DNA of 64,000 nucleotides, taken from the NCBI GenBank assembly GCA_026770705.1, contig JANJGN010000052.1:2108001-2172000 (forward strand), in the 5' to 3' direction. A program made the position numbers and the translations under genes. Below, piece by piece: positions 6,431 to 45,889 of the stretch. The number at the start of each line of letters is the position of its first letter. The first letter of the stretch is position 1. The DNA comes from Isurus oxyrinchus. Lineage: Eukaryota. The notes below the pieces were generated by a model that had not been told where the DNA came from, did not search any database, and worked only from the letters and a program-made list of their open reading frames with translations.

Positions 6431-7153
6431 GTAAGTCTGAAGATTTAACTTGATTTTAATCTAAACATTTGCTTAGGACTAATTGGACAGTTTTTACAAA
6501 AGGCCAGCACAGGCACGATGGGCTGAGTGGCTTCCTCCTAAGCTGTGAGATTTTAAATTCTTTCATCGAATGTGGCTGTCATTGGCGTGGACAATACTAA
6601 TTGCCCATTCCCAATTGCCCCTTGAGAAAGAGGTGGTGAGCTGCCTTCTTGACCCACTACAGTCTATGTGGTGTAGGTACACCCACAGTGTTGTTAGAGA
6701 GGGAGTTCCAGGATTTTGACCCAGCGACAGTGAAGGAACGGTGATATATTTCCAAGTCAGGATGGTGAGTGACTTGGAGGGGAACTTCCAGGTGGTGGTG
6801 TTCCCATGTGTCTGCTGCCCTTGTCCTTCTAGATGGTAGAGGTCGTGGGTTTGGAAGGTGCTGTTGAAGGAGCCTTGCTGAGTTGCTGCAGTGCATCTTG
6901 TAGATGGTACACACACTGCTTCCACTGTGTGTTCGTGGTGGAGGGAGTGAATGTTTAATGTGGTGGATGGGGTGTTGATCAATCGAGCTGCTTTGTTGTG
7001 GATGGTGTCAAGCTTCTTGATTCTGTGCTTTGTGCAGAAGTGATTTAAAGAGACAGTCCCAGTCATTGGTGTAAGCTAACAGTGGGCTCTGTGTCTGTGC
7101 TGCACTGACTCTCTGCTATATGATAACCACAGTGTGATATTGTGTTATTGCAG

Positions 7154-7235
7154 GAGAAAGACAGCGATGGAGGAGAGAGTTTCAGGGACCAGTGACATTG
7201 CATTGAGCCCCAGTTCACTCTCTGTGAAGCACCAG
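7154..7235 (+). CDS. Gene A cytoplasmic exon 1, tail copy A
   Basis: ttgcag|G...CAG|gtacag, 82 nt, phase 2-0, fits the TM exon; RKTAMEERVSGTSDIALSPSSLSVKHQ. Confidence 0.8.
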
Positions 7236-7370
7236 GTACAGGAGCTGTTTACACTCACTCCAAAGCTTCAATCTCAGTGTGTAGACAACACGTGTCCCAG
7301 ATTCCCAGCCCAGTTACCCACTGATTTGTACCTGTGGAGTCAGCAATGTTTCAGTATCATGCTGTCTCTC

Positions 7371-8125
7371 TGTTATGACACAGCAACTGGTAAAGACTGT
7401 TGTTTAAAATCCCAGAGGGAAACTTTAAACAACTGTCATAACCTATATTTCCCAGTGGAATGTTTGAGATGCAGCTCTAAATTCAGGAATAAGACCACCA
7501 GTTCTCGAGATGGTTTTATATCAAACTACATGAGCCATTTATTAATTAACACAAGTTAAACATATGCACATGGCTACAAACTAGTATTATCATAACTTTT
7601 TAACAAATTCCCAAACTAATCTCCTCTAAGATAACCCATAGAATTTAAGCAGACACCCAGGCAAAGCATTTTCACCTCACAAATTCCAAATGAGGTTCCT
7701 TTCACTTTGGTTCCTTTGCAGACAGGTGTAGGCTTACAGCTGCTTTGATGTTACAAGCCTCTGCTCTGCACACACAAAACTGCTCAAGTTATACCCAGCT
7801 CTTCTCTTTGAATGTAAATTCTAATTGTATCATCAGGACCTTTGATCTCCATCTCTTTTCACAATAAATCCTCTGTCATAGTATCAATTTTATCAATAAA
7901 ATAAATGTTGATTGGTTTAAGATTTCACTCTCAGGCGTTGAATGCTCTGTTTAAAAATACAAATTTTTATGCCTCAGTTTACATCTCAAAACTACTATAC
8001 ATCAAATACCCAGACTGGCTGGCTTTAATCCAATTAAAACACACAGAGACACACCCACAGACTAAACCCCGATGTGAATAAAAATAATTTCCAATAACAT
8101 GATATTTATTAATCGCATCATGACA
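7371..8125 (-). mobile_element. Solo-LTR-like insertion (duplicated at 10357-11290)
   Basis: TGTTATGA...TCATGACA inverted termini; reverse-complement similarity to 12322-13273 and 18255-19429. Confidence 0.55.
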
Positions 8126-8701
8126 GTCTCTCTCTCTATCCCAACCTCCCTTTCTTTCTCTCTCTCTCTCTTTCTCTCTCTCTCATCCTCTCTCTGATTA
8201 CAAGGTGCATGTTAATGAGCTTCACACCAGACACTTGAGTGCAGAATCCAACTGTCACTCACCAGAACCATTACCGAGGGAGTGCAAGACTGACAGAGGG
8301 TCAGTACTGAGGGAGTGCTGCACTGTCAGAGGGTCAGTACTGAGGGAGAGCTGCACTGTCAGAGGGTCAGTACTGAGGGAGTGCTGCACTGTCGGAGGGT
8401 CAGTACTGAGGGCGAGCTGCACTGTCGGAGTGTCAGTACTGAGGGAGCGCTGCACTGTCGGAGGGTCAGTAATGAGGGAGCGCTGCACTGTCGGAGGGTC
8501 AGTACTGAGGGAGTGCTGCACTGTCGGAGGGTCAGTCCTGAGGGAGCGTTGCACTGCCATAGGTGGTATCTTTCATATGACATGAGAGAGAGGGTTAAAC
8601 CAACTGAGACACGACTGACATTAACAAGGCTGCACAATAATTTAACCCTATCAGTGCCAGTAAATGATGTGAGGATAACTTCTGTTTCGATTTCTCTGTA
8701 G

Positions 8702-8950
8702 GGTAAACAGAACGTGCTGATTACTGAGCCCCAGAACACAAAGAGAGACGCAACTGGCGAGGGGGAGACCCCAGCTCCCTGGGGTCTCTCTGAAGATGCA
8801 ATGGGAGGCGATGTTGGACATGGGAACCCTGACAAACCTGAAGATTTTCTCTACGCCAATCCCCAAGTCTTGAGGATGTCCAGTGGTGATGGGTCTGTCC
8901 ACAGGGAAGTGGAGACGGAATACGCACAGATCAGGTTCGAGCATAACTGA
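8702..8950 (+). CDS. Gene A terminal cytoplasmic exon, tail copy A (degenerate ITIM FLYANP + ITSM TEYAQI)
   Basis: ctctgtag|GGT phase 0; GKQNVLITEPQ...EDFLYANPQVLR...ETEYAQIRFEHN*; AATAAA at 9517-9522. Confidence 0.85.
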   Translation, partial: GKQNVLITEPQNTKRDATGEGETPAPWGLSEDAMGGDVGHGNPDKPEDFLYANPQVLRMSSGDGSVHREVETEYAQIRFEHN

Positions 8951-10139
8951 ATGAGAAATGGGGAGAGTGAGTGAGGAGGTATGGGGGTGGGGGTAGTGAT
9001 TGAGATTCCTGGGAACAGGAAACACCCACTGGGGGAGAGGGAGAGAGAGGGAGGAAGGGATGGAATTGGGCTGCGGTTGGTGTGGTTTGGAATGAAATGC
9101 TTCTCCAGAGAGGACTGGATGCTGAGCCATTGGGGATAGAGATTCACTGTCTTTCTCTCTCTCTCTCTCTCTCTCCCTCTCTCTCTCGCTCTCTCCCTCT
9201 CTCTCTCTCTCTCTCTCCCTGTCTCTGTCTTTCTTTCTGTGTCTGTCTCTCATTCCCTATCTCCAGCTCCTCCTTTAAGATGCCCGTTAATAACTGACTT
9301 TGTTGACTCAGCTGTTGGTCTCCTGTCCCTAATATCTCCTCATGTGCCTCAGAGTCAGGTGAAGATGTCACTAACAATCCCCAGATGAGCCTTAGGACAT
9401 TTTGCTACATTGAAGGTGCTATATAAATGCAAGTGGTTGTAGTAACTCTGATCTGCTTCGATTAACAATAGAACCACAAAGGCTCCTTCGACAGGGAGTG
9501 TGTGCAGCAGGGTCACAATAAATACATTGAGCTGTGAGATTTTTAATTCTTTCATCGAATGTGTCTGTCACTGGTGATGTCAGCATTAATGCCCATCCCT
9601 AATTGCCCTTGAGAAGGTGGTGGTGAGCTGCCTTCTTGACCCGCTGCAGTCCATGTGGTGCAGCTACACCCAAAGTGCTGTTAGAGAGGGAGTTCCAGGA
9701 TTTTGACCCAGCGACAGTGAAGGAACGGTGATATATTTCCAAGTCAGGATGGTGAGTGACTTGGAGGGGAACTTCCAGGTGGTGGTGTTCCCATGTGTCT
9801 GCTGCCCTTGTCCTTCTAGATGGTAGAGTTCGTGGGTTTGGAAGGTGCTGTTGAAGGAGCCTTGCTGAGTTGCTGCAGTGCATCTTGTAGATGGTACACA
9901 CACTGCTGCCACTGTGTGTTCATGGTGGAGGGAGTGAATGTTTAATGTGGGGGATGGGGTGTAGATCAATCGGGCTGCTTTGTCCTGGATGGTGTCAAGA
10001 TTCTAGATTCTGTGCTTTGTGCAGAAGTGATTTAAAGAGACAGTCCAGTCATTGGTGTAAGGTTACAGTGTGCTCTATGTCTGTGCTGCACTGACTCTCT
10101 GCTATATGATAACCACAGTGTCATATTGTGTTATTGCAG

Positions 10140-10221
10140 GAGAAAGACAGCGATGGAGGAGAGAGTTTCAGGGACCAGAGACATTGCATTGACCCCCAGT
10201 TCACTCTGTGTGAAGCACCAG
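10140..10221 (+). CDS. Gene A cytoplasmic exon 1, tail copy B
   Basis: Near-identical copy of 7154-7235 with intact cag/gtacag sites; RKTAMEERVSGTRDIALTPSSLCVKHQ. Confidence 0.75.
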
Positions 10222-11781
10222 GTACAGGAGCTGTTTACACTCACTCCAAAGCTTCAATCTCAGTGTGTAGACAACACATGTCCCAGATTCCCAGCCCAGT
10301 TACCCACTGATTTGTATCTGTGGAGTCAGCAATGGTTCAGTATCATGCTGTCTCTCTGTTATGACACAGAAACTGGTAAAGGCTGTTGTTTAAAATCCCA
10401 GAGGGAAACTTTAAACAACTGTCATAACCTATATTTCCCAGTGGAATGTTTGAGATGCAGCTCTAAATTCAGGAATAAGACCACCAGTTCTTGAGATGGT
10501 TTTATATCAAACTACTTGAGACATATATTAATTTACACAAGTTAAACATATGCACATGGCTACAAACTAGTATCATCATAAATTTTTAACAAATTCTCAA
10601 ACTAATCTCCTCTAAGACAACCCATTATCTTTAAGCAGACACCCAGGCAAAGCATTTTCACCTCACAAATTCCAAATGAGGTTCCTTTCACTTTGGTTCC
10701 TTTGCAGACAGGTGTAGGCTTACAGCTGCTTTGATGTTACAAGCCTCTGTTCTGCACACACAAAACTGCTCAAGTTATACCCAGCTCTTGAGTGTAAGGA
10801 AGACGGAGATTGATGGGCTCTTGATTGGTCAGGGGATCAAAGGTTAGGAGAGAAGGTGGGAGAATGGGGTTTGTGAAACATATCAGCCATGTATGAATGG
10901 TGGAGCAGACTCGATGGACCGAATGGTCTAATTTCTCCTCCTATATCTGATGGTCTTATGGCTTCTGTTTGAAGGTAAATTCGCAATGTATCATCAGGAC
11001 CTTTGAACTCCATCTCTTCCAATAATAAATCCCCTTTCATCGTATCAATTTTATTAGTAATATAAACGTTGATTGGTTTAAGATTTCACTCTCAGGCATT
11101 TAATGTTTTATTTAAAAATGCAAATTACCACTTTACCTCTTTGTTTACATCTGAAAACTACTATACATCAAAGCACCCAGACTGGCTGGCTTTAATCCAA
11201 TTAAAATACACACAGACACACACACAGACTAAACCTCTGTTTAAAAAGACAGTTTGCATTTATAATACAAACATTAATAGATTAATAACACTCTGTCTCT
11301 GTCCCTCCTCTCTCCCTCTCTCTCATCCTCTCTCTGATTACAAGGTTCATGTTATTGAGCCTCACACCAGGCACCTGTGTGCAGATTCCAAGCCATCACT
11401 CACCAGAGCCATTACCGAGGGAGTGCTGCACTGTTGGAGGGTCAGTACTGAGGGAGTGCTGCACTGTTGGAGGGTCAGTACTGAGGGAGTGCTGCACTGA
11501 CAGAGGGTCAGTACTGAGGGAGCGCTGTATTGTCGGAGGGTCAGCACTGAGGGAGTGCTGCACTGTCAGAGGGTCAGTATTGAGGGAGTGCTGCACTGTT
11601 GGAGTGTGATAGAGATTAAATTATAAAGAGAGAGAGAAAGCGAGAGAGACAGAGAAAGAGAGTGAAAAAAAGGGTTAAACCCACTGAGATACGACTGACA
11701 CTAATGAGGCTGCACAATAATTTAACCCTATCAGTACCAGTAATTGATGTGAGGATATCTTCTGTTTCCATTTCTCTGTAG

Positions 11782-12030
11782 GGTAAACAGAACGTGCTGA
11801 TTACTGAGCCCCGGAACACAACCAGAGACACAACTAGTGAGGGGGAGACCCCAGCTCCCCGGGATCTCTCTGAAGGTCCAGTGGGAGGCGATGTTGGACA
11901 TGGGAACCCCGACAATCCCGCCAAGCTTCTCTACGCCAACATCAACTTTTCAAAGCTGCCCGGCGGTGACAGGACTGTGCACAGGAGCGAGGACACGGAA
12001 TACGCACAGATCAGGTTCCAGAAAAACTGA
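11782..12030 (+). CDS. Gene A terminal cytoplasmic exon, tail copy B (ITIM LLYANI + ITSM TEYAQI)
   Basis: ctctgtag|GGT phase 0; ...PAKLLYANINFSKL...DTEYAQIRFQKN*, the classic Siglec ITIM plus ITSM-like pair. Confidence 0.85.
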   Translation, partial: GKQNVLITEPRNTTRDTTSEGETPAPRDLSEGPVGGDVGHGNPDNPAKLLYANINFSKLPGGDRTVHRSEDTEYAQIRFQKN

Positions 12031-25109: not shown

Positions 25110-25155
25110 ATGGGAGAGGTCGGTCTGATACTGATCTTCATCAGCTTGCTGCAAG
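25110..25155 (+). CDS. Siglec-like gene B signal peptide exon
   Basis: MGEVGLILIFISLLQ-G|gtacaa, phase 1; acceptor tttag just upstream. Confidence 0.85.
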
Positions 25156-25975: not shown

Positions 25976-26332
25976 GAGTGACGTCAGAGGGATGGTCTAT
26001 GAAGGCGCTGTCTCGGAGGGCCATCAGCAGCTCTTGTGTGGTTATTCCGTGTAGCTTTGACTTTCCTTCCCACTCTTACACAGCACTGCACGGAGCTTGG
26101 TATAAATATTGGTATAGATGGAAATATACCATCACATACACCAAAGATCCCAACTATGCGATGGCCACATTCGTGGGACGTGCTAAAATAATCGGCGACT
26201 TGGAAGGGAAGAATTGTTCGGTGAGGATTGACAGTCTCAGAGCTGAAGATAGTGATGTGTATTACTTTTATGTGGATGTGGAGGGCTACACAGATCACAC
26301 TTTTACACAACCAGTCCAACTCCAGGTTCTTG
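25976..26332 (+). CDS. Gene B Siglec-type V-set Ig exon (essential Arg replaced by Tyr)
   Basis: ttcag|GA...CTTG|gtaagt, 357 nt; SCVVIPCSF...GAWY...FVGRAKIIGDLEGKNCSVRI...EDSDVYYFYV; Siglec B- and E-strand Cys present, no F-strand Cys. Confidence 0.92.
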
Positions 26333-28419: not shown

Positions 28420-28707
28420 ATGCTCCAGATAAGCCAGTTATTGTGCTCCTGAAGGATTTACAGGAGGGGACTCCTGCACATATCATCTGTAAATGCCTCT
28501 ACACCTGCCCTGATAACCACCCCAATCTAACCTGGAGTGAATTGCTGACTTCATCGGTCAGCAACATTACAGAGAACGGTGGTGAGGTTTCCGCTCTACT
28601 GACCTTTAACCCTTCGTTCAAGCATCATGGACGAACTCTCCGCTGTACGTGCGACTACCCTCAAACCAGCCATCGAGTGGTCAGCTCCGTTACTCTGAGT
28701 GTAAAGT
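28420..28707 (+). CDS. Gene B Ig domain 2 (Siglec D2-type C2)
   Basis: ttacag|AT...AAGT|gtaagt, 288 nt; DKPVI..LQEGTPAHIICKCLYTCPDNHPNLTW...ALLTFNPSFKHHGRTLRCTCDYP. Confidence 0.92.
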
Positions 28708-29215: not shown

Positions 29216-29473
29216 ATTCTCCTCACAACACGTCTGTCAGGCTGACACTGGAAAAAGGAAAGGTGATTTCTCTAAGTTGTTCCAGTGACGGGAATCCAGC
29301 AGTCCACAATTTCACCTGGTTTAAGATCTCCCAAGGAAAGATGACGAATCTCGCGCTCGCTGGTCAAACTATTACAGTTCCTTATGGATTCGATGAGGAA
29401 ATCTCCTACTACTGTGAAGCAACAAGTATCCTGGGCAGTTCCCAGTCTCTGCCCATTAGAATTCCCACTGAAT
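29216..29473 (+). CDS. Gene B Ig domain 3 (C2)
   Basis: gaaag|AT...GAAT|gtgagt, 258 nt; SPHNTSV...ISLSCSSDGNPAVHNFTWFK...SYYCEATSILG, CD22/sialoadhesin-like C2. Confidence 0.9.
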
Positions 29474-34154: not shown

Positions 34155-34436
34155 ACACACCACAGAATCTCTCAATTAATTCTCTTGATATGATTAACGT
34201 TTCATCGATCAATATAATTGAGGGGTATTCTGCAGTGATAATCTGCTCAGTCGAGAGCTTCCCAACTTCTAACCTGACGTGGCGACATCTTAATGTCCCA
34301 ATGAACAGAACAAGTTCCAACAATGATCTGTGGTTGGTGATTCCTCACGTTACATCCAGGGACACTGGAGACTATCAGTGTGTGGCAGAGAATGAACATG
34401 GAGCAGTGGAGGGGTTCATAACCATCACTGTGGAAC
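34155..34436 (+). CDS. Gene B Ig domain 4 (C2)
   Basis: tttcag|AC...GAAC|gtgagt, 282 nt; near-identical to 2479-2760. Confidence 0.9.
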
Positions 34437-34915: not shown

Positions 34916-35197
34916 ATGCTCCACAGAACCTCTCAATTACTTCTCTTGATATGATTAACGCTTCATCGATCAATATAATTGAGGGGAATTCTAGAGTGAT
35001 AATCTGCTCTGTCGAGAGCTTCCCAGCTTCTAACCTGACGTGGCGACATCTTAATGTCCCAATGAACAGAACAAGTTCCAACAATGAGCTGTGGTTGGTG
35101 ATTCCTCACGTTACATCCAGGGACACTGGAGACTATCAGTGTGTGGCAGAGAATGAACATGGAGCAGTGGAGGGATTCATAACCATCACTGTGGAAC
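34916..35197 (+). CDS. Gene B Ig domain 5 (C2, tandem duplicate of domain 4)
   Basis: ttttag|AT...GAAC|gtgagt, 282 nt; only a handful of substitutions versus 2479-2760. Confidence 0.9.
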
Positions 35198-36463: not shown

Positions 36464-36560
36464 GGCGAGATTCCAATGAATGGAAAGCAGGATTGCTTGG
36501 AGCTGGAATCTGTTTGAGTGTTGGACTGAGTGGATTCTTCATCTTCAAGTGTGTGAGAAA
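36464..36560 (+). CDS. Gene B transmembrane exon
   Basis: ttacag|GG...AGAAA|gtaagt, 97 nt, paralogous to 6334-6430; RDSNEWKAGLLGAGICLSVGLSGFFIFKCVRK. Confidence 0.88.
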
Positions 36561-37124: not shown

Positions 37125-37520
37125 CAGGACACAAAGGGTTAACAGTTTGCTTACAACACAACACTAAGGCCCAACGTTTCAATGAAAGGGTTTTCACAAT
37201 TGTTCCCCAATTCCTGATTTGACTCACAGAGAGACATCCACCCTTTCTCATTAAATACACAGAGGGAGCAGCACAGGAAGAGGTCATTCAGCCCAAGCAG
37301 AGCGTGTGGGCAGTTCCTCCCCAGGCGAGCAGTCGGACAGGTACTGGGTAAGTAACGGAACGATTGGAATTCACTTCCACCACCAACACCGTCCTTTGTT
37401 GATGTTGTGACTTTATAAAGACAGATTCCAATGATTGATGCCTTTGAAAGATTTCTACTGATTATTGAGATCTGGGTGTGAGGCTCAAGTCTGTTGTACA
37501 GAACATCTTTCTGGTTAAAT
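37125..37520 (+). promoter_or_regulatory. Promoter/first-exon module copy 1 (inside the gene B intron)
   Basis: Near-identical to 43594-43970; TGACTCA, CAGGAAG, donor gtaagt at 37348. Confidence 0.55.
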
Positions 37521-37863
37521 TATGCAGACAGGTTACACACAGTCTACGATTATATTCACTCGGGTCTAGAAGATTAAGGAGGGATCTAATTGAGAGTTTC
37601 AAACTGATTAAACACTCGATAGGGTCGATAGAGAGAAGCTATTCCCTCGGGTGGGGGTGGGTGGTGGGGGTCGGGTGGAGTCCAGAACAAGGGGGCTGGA
37701 ACTTCAGATTGGAGCCAGGCCGTTCAGGGGTGATGTCAGGAAGCACTTCTTCACACAAAGGGGAGTGGAAATCTGGAACTCTCTCCCCAATAATCAAACC
37801 CAACACCGAATACACATCATGTTGATTGTCATTCTGTCCATTTCCATCTCTATTTCGGAAGAG

Positions 37864-37963
37864 AGGTGAGGGGAAAGCAGGAATCAAATCGAACCACCGT
37901 GTTGATGAATATCGAGGTCCTGTTTATGAAAACTGTGAGCGTGGTTGGGCTTTGAGGAATCAG
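37864..37963 (+). CDS. Gene B candidate cytoplasmic exon 1 (VYENC)
   Basis: GEGKAGIKSNHRVDEYRGPVYENCERGWALRNQ|gtgagt; a pyrimidine tract precedes it, but the expected acceptor reads tatttcgg; the in-phase alternative is a weak gag at 37861-37863. Confidence 0.55.
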
Positions 37964-39770: not shown

Positions 39771-39887
39771 AAGAAAGATGAGAAGGATCTGGAAATGAAA
39801 TCTAACCGCGGAGTCAATCCTGATACAGATGATGATCTTTACGCAAACTGTGAATTTGCCAAGGATTCTGTTTATGGGAATTTATAA
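39771..39887 (+). CDS. Gene B candidate terminal cytoplasmic exon (LYANC...SVYGNL*)
   Basis: tctattacag|AAG phase 0; KKDEKDLEMKSNRGVNPDTDDDLYANCEFAKDSVYGNL*; AATAAA at 40662-40667. Confidence 0.75.
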   Translation, partial: KKDEKDLEMKSNRGVNPDTDDDLYANCEFAKDSVYGNL

Positions 39888-42949: not shown

Positions 42950-43175
42950 CAAAGGGTTAACAGTTTTCTAACTGTGCGAGGCAAAGAGCATCTTTCTCAC
43001 TTGGTACCAAGCACTTCCTCATTTTGACTCACAGTGACACATCCACCCTTTTTAATTAAACACAAATAGGGAGCAGCACAGGAAGAGGTCATTCAGCCCA
43101 AGCAGAGCGTGTGGGCAGTTCCTCCCCAGGCGAGCAGTCGGACAGGTCCGGGGTAAGTAACGGAATGATTGGAAA
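42950..43175 (+). promoter_or_regulatory. Promoter/first-exon module copy 2
   Basis: CACTTCCTCATTT (PU.1-like) next to TGACTCA (AP-1) at 43012-43031; donor at 43153. Confidence 0.55.
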
Positions 43176-43593: not shown

Positions 43594-43970
43594 TCAGGAC
43601 ACAAAGGGTTAACAGTTCACCAACATCTCAAAACATGAGCTGGTCTGTCACTTTGATCCAACTTCCTCATTTTGACTCACAGACACACATCAACCCTTTC
43701 TCATTAAATACACAGAGGGAGCAGCACAGGAAGAGGTCATTCAGCCCAAGCAGAGCGTGTGGGCAGTTCCTCCCCAGGCGAGCAGTCGGACAGGTCCTGG
43801 GTAAGTAACGGAACGATTGGAATTCACTTCCACCACCAACACCGTCCTTTGTTGATGTTGTGACTTTATAAAGACAGATTCCAATGACTGATGCCTTTGA
43901 AAGATTTCTACTGATTATTGAGATCTGGGTGTGAGGCTCAAGTCTGTTGTACCGAACATCTTTCTAGTTC
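43594..43970 (+). promoter_or_regulatory. Promoter/first-exon module copy 3 (likely gene C promoter)
   Basis: ACTTCCTCATTTTGACTCA 43661-43679; donor gtaagt at 43801; next acceptor tttcacag at 44210 opens the leader exon. Confidence 0.6.
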
Positions 43971-44992
43971 AAGGGATGAGGGAAGTGCAGAGACATGAGC
44001 TTTGGGATGCCCTGAGGTGGTGAAAGGTGCTATAGAAATGCAAATCCTTCATTGTTGGTCTTTCTTAAAGCCTTGTAACTCTCTGCAGAGCACCTATCAT
44101 CCCACAGAGAATCAAATTAGTCTGTGAAGACATTGTCTAAAAGCAGTTCTGATCTCTCGAGAGCTGTCGGACAAGAGGTGAGGTCTCATTAACTCCTTTC
44201 TCTTTCACAGCTTGAGAGTGAGAAGTGGATGGAATATCTGGGAGTGGACAATGATCGGGAAATCTACTTCCTCTTGTCACTTCTCCAAGGTAATATCATC
44301 GTCAGCTTGGACAGATTTATATTTAACAGTCTTTGTAAAAGATCATTCTTATCTCTTTATCTCTGTAACCTCCTGCAATGCAACCAATCAACTTCCCAGA
44401 TCTCTGTGTTACTCCACTTCTGGCCTCTTGACCATCCCCCAATTCCCATCACTCCAATACTGGCGGCCGTGCCTACAGCTGCCTGGGACCTGAGCTCTGG
44501 AATTCACTCCCTAAACCTCAGCGATGGAGGAGATCAGAGGGTTTCATTTTACTGAGAATCACCACGACCACATCACAGCTGCAGTGAGAATAGACAGAGA
44601 GTCCAGCCCTCACACTTCCTGCACAGTTTCACCATAGCAACCACAATATGGAAATTTAAAAATACTGAAAGTTAAACTGAAGCTCAGCCCATTCAGTGTT
44701 GAGAGATGAGATATTTACACAGTTTCCCTGTGTATCTTGTAGACACTGTGTTGGATGGAAGACTGGCTTCACTAAACAGGGTCCTGAGGACCATGAGCCA
44801 ATGTAGAATGAACTTGTCCACTCCTGTGTCCAGGATTCTCTTCTATCTGTTGTGAAACCTTGGGGAGTTCCTTGTGTGTCCTGTAGATGGTCCACACTGC
44901 AGCCACTGTGCCCCAGTGATGGAGGGGGTGGATATCGAGTCTAGTGGATCTACAAACCATCCAGAGTCAAATATTGATATTTCTCTCCCCCG

Positions 44993-45366
44993 TTGGACTG
45001 TCACAAGAGTGGAAAGGTGACACTCCACGAGAGGTGACAGCACAGGAAGGTTCATGTGTACAGATTCCATGTCATTACAGTTACTTATCAAATTTCGTAG
45101 GGAGATCACGTGCAGAATCTGGTTGAAAGGAATAGATGGGAACCCACAGCCGAAATGGTCTATAGCCTTTCACTCCGAGGGTCACAATCACAGGGATCAA
45201 AGATTCCGCCATCGTACCCGGCTGTCTGGAGACCTGAAAGATGGCGACTGTTCCCTGATTATAAACAACATCAGACGGGAAGATGCAGGACCTTATTTTT
45301 TCAGAATAGAGTTTGACAGCAGGAATAGTTACAGCTACTATCCTGTAACCCAGCTTGACGTTTCTG
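44993..45366 (+). pseudogene. Gene C V-set exon with intact sialic-acid-binding Arg
   Basis: GLSQEWKGDTPREVTAQEGSCVQIPCHYSY / frameshift / IWLKG...FRHRTRLSGDLKDGDCSLIINNIRREDAGPYFFRIEFDSRNSYSY; 374 nt (3n-1), donor G|gtaagt. Confidence 0.85.
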
Positions 45367-45889
45367 GTAAGTGCTGTGTTATAATTACTCAACAATTCAC
45401 ATCCAACACTCAATGGGAAATAACACAAACTGTGACGTTTACATAATAACACAAAACACAGCTTATTATAACACACTGTCTGATTCTCAATAACCTGGTG
45501 ATAGCTTCCAGTTCAGTCCTAAAGCAACCTCTAAAAATCACTTTAATATCAATGATGAAAAGCATTAACTGTACCGACATCTTTCATTCTACATCAGCAC
45601 TCCCTCAGCACTGACCCTCTGACAGTGCAGCCTGTTCTCAGTATCCACATTCTCAGGCCACTCAAAGTGCTTCACAGTCGATAGAAGTTAATTGATCTTT
45701 ATATGATTATTGCTGAATGAAGAGACAAGCTGTCTAAACTTCTCATATCGCAAACAGCATTCTCCACGGCAACACCTCCACCTATCAGAGACCACTTGCC
45801 AACCAATCAGCACTGTCTTTCCATTAAGTATAAATTGTTGTTCACTTTCTGTTGGTAATCGTGCAAACGGGGTTCTTGATTCCTGCCAT

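Follow-up and report, generated by a model that had tools for sequence, protein, structure and literature searches.

Siglecs that lack the essential arginine are usually taken as broken or retiring receptors, and the locus described here raises the question of whether such a head may instead belong to an old, maintained receptor with a different ligand. The window (i.e., the whole stretch of 64,000 nucleotides from Isurus oxyrinchus that was analyzed) contains a gene, hereafter gene B, whose V-set exon (25976..26332, + strand) was read in a first-pass annotation as an intact Siglec V domain that had lost the essential Arg, gained an aromatic patch, and therefore recognized a non-sialic ligand. 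This exon has an open frame with AG/GT ends (phase 1-1) and matches the Pfam V-set family with an E-value of 1.6e-7. The domain it encodes was modeled on 77 sequences at a pLDDT of 91.9, and only this model was used, a first AlphaFold model built on 19 rows (pLDDT 64.8) having been set aside. The V domain was thus correctly described as intact. Searching the PDB with phmmer placed MAG (6e-15) and sialoadhesin (7e-12) as the top matches, and a structure search with the model returned a Siglec fold, with Z 19.4 and rmsd 1.4 over 114 aligned residues for MAG and Z 19.3 and rmsd 1.4 over 113 for sialoadhesin. All of the top 31 entries in that search were Siglecs, and the ESM Atlas returned generic CD22/CD33-like clusters only. 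The Siglec cysteine pattern consists of a B-E intra-sheet disulfide, a Phe at the F-strand Cys position, and an extra V-C2 Cys; the corresponding residues (C20, C25, C80, and F97) are invariant among the relatives of gene B, with the bonds themselves predicted from sequence.

The YYFY motif of gene B lies without gaps on YYFR of MAG and YNFR of sialoadhesin, and therefore Tyr98 (codon 26269..26271, + strand; Tyr114 of the full protein) occupies the essential-Arg site, aligned to MAG Arg118 and sialoadhesin Arg97. The three stretches quoted in the annotation are present as given: DSDVYYFYVD in the F strand, DAGPYFFRIE at the same place in gene C, and WYKYWYRWKY in the C-C' region. The last of these (W41-Y50; 26098..26127, + strand) falls on strands 36-45 and 48-54 of the model and forms an aromatic and basic hairpin, where W45 is paired with W48 over a turn of two residues. 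No other Arg or Lys was found at the aligned positions of the sialic-acid pocket in any of the 16 rows compared. The N-terminal Trp of the binding site (W6) is invariant, and the G-strand aromatic is weakened, since position 107 is mostly His (12/16 rows, with Tyr in the other 4/16). With its N-terminal V-set and C2-set domains in a type I membrane protein, gene B has the architecture by which Siglecs are defined and, in the model, is a Siglec by structure. The F-strand Arg that marks the functional lectins of the family is replaced by Tyr in all 26 aligned rows of this lineage (hereafter, the Tyr lineage). Because the defining Arg is absent, we call gene B Siglec-like pending binding.

Using proteins of shark relatives as guides, we located nine exons of gene B, which join in frame through canonical splice sites and encode a protein of 603 aa (V, four C2, transmembrane segment, and a tail with tyrosines) that shares 93.4% full-length identity with a Carcharodon protein of equal length. 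All lie on the + strand. The signal-peptide exon (25110..25155) runs from an ATG to a GT donor and is 100% identical to residues 1-16 of a relative (P0008). The V exon is followed by C2-set domain 2 (28420..28707), which holds the partner Cys of the V-C2 disulfide (TCPDN), by Ig domains 3 (29216..29473; repeated up to 11 times in paralogues), 4 (34155..34436), and 5 (34916..35197), and by a transmembrane exon (36464..36560) that is 97% identical to two relatives (P0008/P0009) and has no conserved buried charge. The tail is encoded by two cytoplasmic exons (37263..37347 and the last exon, 39771..39887, with DLYANC, SVYGNL, and the stop), or by three when an optional exon (37862..37963, PVYENC) is included; in the gene B copy the usual CAG acceptor of the latter has become CGG, and an in-frame AG lies 3 nt further on. 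The C-terminal SVYGNL fits the ITIM consensus ([SIVL]xYxx[LV]), and DLYANC, SVYGNL, and PVYENC all match YxN, the motif bound by SH2 domains of the Grb2 type. Judged by this motif and by the lack of a buried transmembrane charge, gene B classifies as an ITIM-type receptor, for which SHP recruitment is predicted. Spliced V-to-C2 joints (GT..AG) were detected in 3 of 4 public runs (X3, X4, and X6) from two studies, and one public contig spans the whole V exon with a single difference; these runs, whose records name no tissue, are only guessed to be RNA, and their contigs are not assignable to an exact copy. The signal-to-V step has exon-bounded cover only, the joint being absent among the rows listed. 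Downstream of the gene B stop, the window also holds two orphan duplicates of cytoplasmic exon 1 (43060-43146 and 43715-43800), which are present in paralogous units too.

How old is the Arg-to-Tyr replacement? Among 119 candidate proteins, 25 were longer relatives of gene B, all from sharks or rays and 63-95% identical to it. YYFY is present in all 25 and in four skate proteins (P0026, P0171, P0175, and P0232), so that Tyr is kept in 29/29 relatives from 16 named shark and ray species, and both TAT and TAC encode it among the copies in the Isurus genome itself. A search of 1.84 billion representatives gave 7 matches at 64-92%, the others among the best 150 being at or below 40%. No Arg-bearing orthologue was found in the 16 species. 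Likewise, no chimaera or bony-fish member of the lineage was found, which is weak evidence because of the word-index limits and the 50% clustering of that search. The Tyr lineage forms one clade (support 100/99 to 100/100) with a stem of 0.5-0.9 and end branches of 0.10-0.22. Since all shark and ray relatives found have both Tyr and the aromatic patch, these features point to an old, preserved receptor type rather than a freshly crippled copy, and both date back to the shark-ray split or earlier. The patch proposed in the annotation is present, and stronger than in other V domains, but cannot be called gained on the evidence of this lineage.

The annotation had also likened gene B to human Siglec-12, and the same data contradict that analogy. 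In human Siglec-XII the change, R122C, is recent and null alleles are common, and this protein shares with the ape Siglec-5/14 Arg mutants the replacement of the essential Arg in an expressed Siglec (PMC6288428). These changes are recent and partly decaying, whereas that of gene B predates the shark-ray split and is fixed together with co-conserved surface residues. The view of gene B as a retired Siglec of this kind, which lost its Arg recently and is turning into a pseudogene, would find some comfort in the fact that about 100 of the 116 near-identical Tyr V copies in the genome end within the F strand. However, all 34 truncated copies that were read share one common junction, and they therefore represent one event amplified by duplication. 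Moreover, Tyr is fixed across sharks and rays, Arg to Tyr needs at least 2 base changes, and gene B is intact with existing splice joints. We consider retirement very improbable.

The remaining 16 copies of the Tyr V exon are full length (95-99% identity), and 15 of them are followed by a domain-2 exon. Within the genome, pN/pS was 0.31 in full versus 0.47 in truncated copies (Fisher p 0.55; 16 full and 34 of about 100 truncated copies), which does not tell the two classes apart. Across eight loci, a common Tyr head stands on about 2 to 13 C2 domains and is combined with three kinds of transmembrane segment and tail (A, B, and C); in one of the eight a C2 exon is interrupted by a stop and the last exon is missing, and none of them carries an Arg-bearing transmembrane segment. 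This agrees with a near-constant head that is exchanged among stalks and tails in the cluster, and a head that stays constant while stalks and tails vary would suit a conserved ligand that is met in trans at different distances. In some paralogues (L098-L100 and L113-L114) Ig domain 3 is repeated in tandem 9-11 times, and back-joints between these tandem exons occurred in all 4/4 runs. The truncated copies (L017-L030 and L115-L134) continue after the junction into a probable retroelement sequence, many of them with an open frame and an intact acceptor; the sequence beyond the junction gave a weak match to gag-asp_proteas that was below the cut-off (E 0.0066). The junction (YY or YC, then CACCCAA) sits where an antibody V segment would end, and a recombination signal at this point was considered and rejected, as only 3/7 heptamer and 4/9 nonamer letters agree with the consensus and the sequence that follows resembles a piece of a retroelement. 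The Siglec cluster is very large: among the matches listed, Arg-class V exons number at least 150 and close copies of the Tyr-class exon about 119, on contigs C52, C71, C121, C150, C189, C385, C557, C323, C646, and others. Haplotypes that were assembled twice may account for some of these copies.

The annotation had further stated that the Arg-bearing V domain of the window sits in a broken gene, and this turned out to be an effect of the window edge. On the one hand, gene C (44251..45367, + strand) is indeed a pseudogene, with a 1-nt deletion that shifts the frame of its signal exon (44251-44289), another in its Arg-bearing V exon (Arg codon 45303-45305), and a 5'-truncated C2 exon next to it. 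On the other hand, 3.1-3.5 kb ahead of the window there is a V exon with an open frame and the Arg (L061:6051-6404), which is followed by the C2 exons of gene A, and 15 of the 21 other open V exons examined in the genome keep the Arg. No signal exon was found for gene A, which may therefore not be whole. Gene A also has two alternative cytoplasmic exon pairs after one transmembrane exon (window 7153-8950 and 10139-12030), one tail with LYANPQV and the other with the ITIM-like LYANINF. In the Arg-class V exons (L061-L080) the C-C' loop is highly variable, and 6/21 have Gly, Ser, or Thr in place of Arg. Loss of the Arg is common in general, as 71 of 259 other V rows are without it, 35 of them with Trp instead.

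The aromatic patch was compared over the 14 residues that start at the C-strand Trp. This stretch holds 8-10 aromatics in 26/26 rows of the Tyr lineage, against a mean of 2.7 and a maximum of 6 in 188 Arg-bearing rows. Among 15 Arg-bearing V exons examined in the genome, 13 are open and 10 have 5-6 aromatics, although these exons were partly picked for their likeness to gene B. Because Arg-bearing shark V domains are also aromatic in C-C' (5-6 versus 8-10), the patch of the Tyr lineage is extreme but not unique in kind, and the association between patch and Arg loss is weaker than the annotation implied.

Where the lineage is conserved tells more about its possible ligand. Positions A40, W41, K43, Y44, W45, W48, K49, Y50, Y54, Y95-Y98, and G103 are invariant in 16/16 rows, as is the hairpin K-Y-W-x-x-W-K-Y, of which the two turn residues vary. 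Invariant positions are focused on the C, C', and F strands (14/29), compared with 3/16 in FG/G and 2/11 in E. In rays, Heptranchias, and Pristiophorus, conservation of the V domain exceeds that of the two C2 domains after it by 6-22 points (in four rays, 62-69% identity versus 54-57% and 45-53%), whereas in the carpet sharks Rhincodon and Stegostoma it is about equal or lower (64% versus 64-69%); domains 4-5 are more conserved than V. Shark Arg-type V domains were less conserved than their own C2 domains in 5/7 comparisons and equal in 2/7. Strand register and alignment suggest that Y/F42, Y44, Y54, Y96, Y98, and H/Y107 share the GFCC' face, that K49 and a neutral-to-acidic F-G loop would flank it, and that W45/W48 would tip the hairpin. 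V domains usually contact other proteins through the GFCC' face, and Tyr-rich faces of this kind often bind proteins. Slow evolution together with invariance in C, C', and F would accordingly fit a conserved self protein, either a counter-receptor or gene B itself, as in the V domains of CD2/SLAM, PD-1, and CEACAM. This alternative has a real but minor chance in our estimate, as the fold descends from a sugar binder, Trp6 and the G-strand aromatic are retained, and there is no known candidate partner for gene B. A homodimer prediction for the V domain scored 0.06 and speaks neither for nor against this alternative. Pairing of Trp residues across a two-residue turn is also a known hairpin-stabilizing pattern, and the W45/W48 pair in the model could thus mean that the aromatics stabilize the domain itself (as a Trp-zipper-like hairpin or through V-C2 packing), with the head as a spacer or cis partner without an outside ligand. 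Such a role would leave unexplained both the invariance of Tyr98, Tyr96, Ala40, and the Lys residues and the combination of a single head with stalks that differ widely in length, and appears improbable to us.

The reading that we favor, tentatively and at somewhat less than even confidence, is that gene B uses the GFCC' face to stack its aromatics against a conserved glycan or glycolipid head that is uncharged and non-sialic. A non-sialic ligand, as the annotation had proposed, is our best inference from the sequences, while the chemical class of this ligand is the weakest step of the explanation. The contacts of MAG with sialic acid are R118, Y65, N125, Y127, and T128 (PMC7226832). They map to Y98, W45/Y46, T105, H107, and T108 in gene B. 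No row has a basic residue at any of these sites, and acidic residues are frequent at positions 100, 102, 105, and 106 of the lineage; the canonical carboxylate site is therefore gone. With the charge clamp lost and stacking residues gained, an uncharged glycan or glycolipid would be the simplest ligand. We propose that the ancestral sialic-acid Arg was changed to Tyr, whereby the carboxylate clamp would have been lost and the sugar-stacking residues kept and extended. Binding in trans would then cluster the receptor, and the tail tyrosines (one ITIM-like and two or three YxN) may recruit SHP-type phosphatases or Grb2-type adaptors. Because the loss is ancient, fixed, and ringed by invariant surface residues, it argues for a second ligand class on the Siglec scaffold.

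The further premise of the annotation, that loss of the Arg abolishes binding, is overstated, since human Siglec-6, MAG, and Siglec-11 are reported to bind sialosides without the Arg (PMC12953582, PMC10122656). Gene B could by analogy bind sialosides independently of Arg, most likely membrane gangliosides, by inserting Trp-Lys into the bilayer and pairing Lys43/Lys49 with the carboxylate, as Lys126/Trp127 do in Siglec-6. In that protein, W127A keeps about 5% of binding and R122A about 75% (PMC12953582). Gene B has invariant W48-K49 and K43-Y44-W45, and its nearest structure, MAG, is another Arg-tolerant ganglioside binder. However, the KW of Siglec-6 lies 4-5 residues past the Arg, where gene B has E102-G103; the WK of gene B sits on the C-C' hairpin, and its F-G loop is acidic. 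In addition, the Arg is not lost in Siglec-6. Arg-independent recognition by a Trp together with a Lys would be a shared feature (PMC12953582, PMC10122656), but in Siglec-6 it involves another loop and a protein that keeps the Arg and needs sialic acid on a glycolipid. We give ganglioside binding a minor chance, close to that of a protein partner, and see these two as the main rivals of the uncharged ligand preferred here.

Comparison with the two closest known Siglecs shows a mixture of features. Gene B shares with MAG the layout of V plus 4 C2 domains, slow evolution, a similar F-G loop (D-x-x-G-Y-x-x-[HY]-T-F), and the domain 2 motif C-P-[DE]. It differs in having Tyr in place of Arg118, in its identity of about 31-38%, in a short Trp/Tyr/Lys hairpin at C-C' where MAG has a PYP-x-x-x-PPVV loop, and in being multicopy (16 full copies) with variable stalks and tails, whereas MAG is single-copy. 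Sialoadhesin has a C-C' hairpin of equal length (WYYDY versus WYKYW in an ungapped alignment), and its long stalk recurs in some gene B paralogues; unlike sialoadhesin, gene B lacks Arg97 and has 5 Ig domains and a tyrosine-bearing tail.

Where the Tyr lineage belongs within the family was addressed with four trees on manually chosen subsets (56, 50, and 46 rows). The sequences came from 201 de-duplicated V domains, to which MAG rows were added, and all of them were top matches of the query. FastTree placed the lineage as sister to MAG (0.943), and a V-only IQ-TREE as sister (84/77) to a Siglec-like clade with Trp at the Arg site. Two-domain IQ-TREEs recovered neither as sister, and MAG was also not recovered in the V-only IQ-TREE. 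Three AU tests, which covered MAG (p 0.35 and 0.27) and the shark Arg lineage (p 0.14) as sister and left out the pairing of Tyr and Trp, rejected none of these placements. The Trp clade (99/97) comprises sequences from turtle, frog, caecilian, gar, tarpon, and Centroberyx, and contains nearly all of the 35 rows with Trp at this site (P0027, P0096, P0100, P0130, P0029, P0060, P0037, and related ones). It resembles gene B in the aromatic at the Arg site and a W-Y-x-Y C strand, but has Trp rather than Tyr, 19-36% identity, and faster evolution. No MAG orthologue was found in the Isurus oxyrinchus genome (best matches 41-44%), nor any from cartilaginous fish in 120 of 127 MAG matches listed; both searches can miss such a gene. 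One speculative scenario, to which we give a low probability, is that an early jawed-vertebrate Siglec branch exchanged its Arg for an aromatic, took a conserved glycan or lipid other than sialic acid as its ligand, and would survive as the shark and ray Tyr lineage, either with the Trp lineage (fish, amphibians, and turtles) as its other descendant or with the Tyr lineage standing in for MAG in sharks.

Our full-text search of the accessible literature found no account of the Tyr lineage. The whale-shark genome paper has a single mention of Siglecs, and shark MAG is not a subject of the skate myelin paper in its accessible parts. Proteins of the lineage are already in databases under automatic names, and the "MAG-like" and "CD22-like" labels in shark genomes hide two deep lineages, one with a diversifying Arg head and the other with a constant Tyr head. 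Compared across species, the Tyr lineage is a real, conserved variant of the Siglec family with a putative ligand. It offers a clean test protein for the question of Arg-independent Siglec binding and draws attention to the Trp lineage that parallels it in bony vertebrates. Outside the cluster, a lone Siglec/PILR-like gene was observed on C8 near 88.36 Mb (L081, L135-L137), whose V domain is 38-44% identical to that of MAG, keeps the Arg and the G-strand Trp, and is without the Cys of the V-C2 disulfide.
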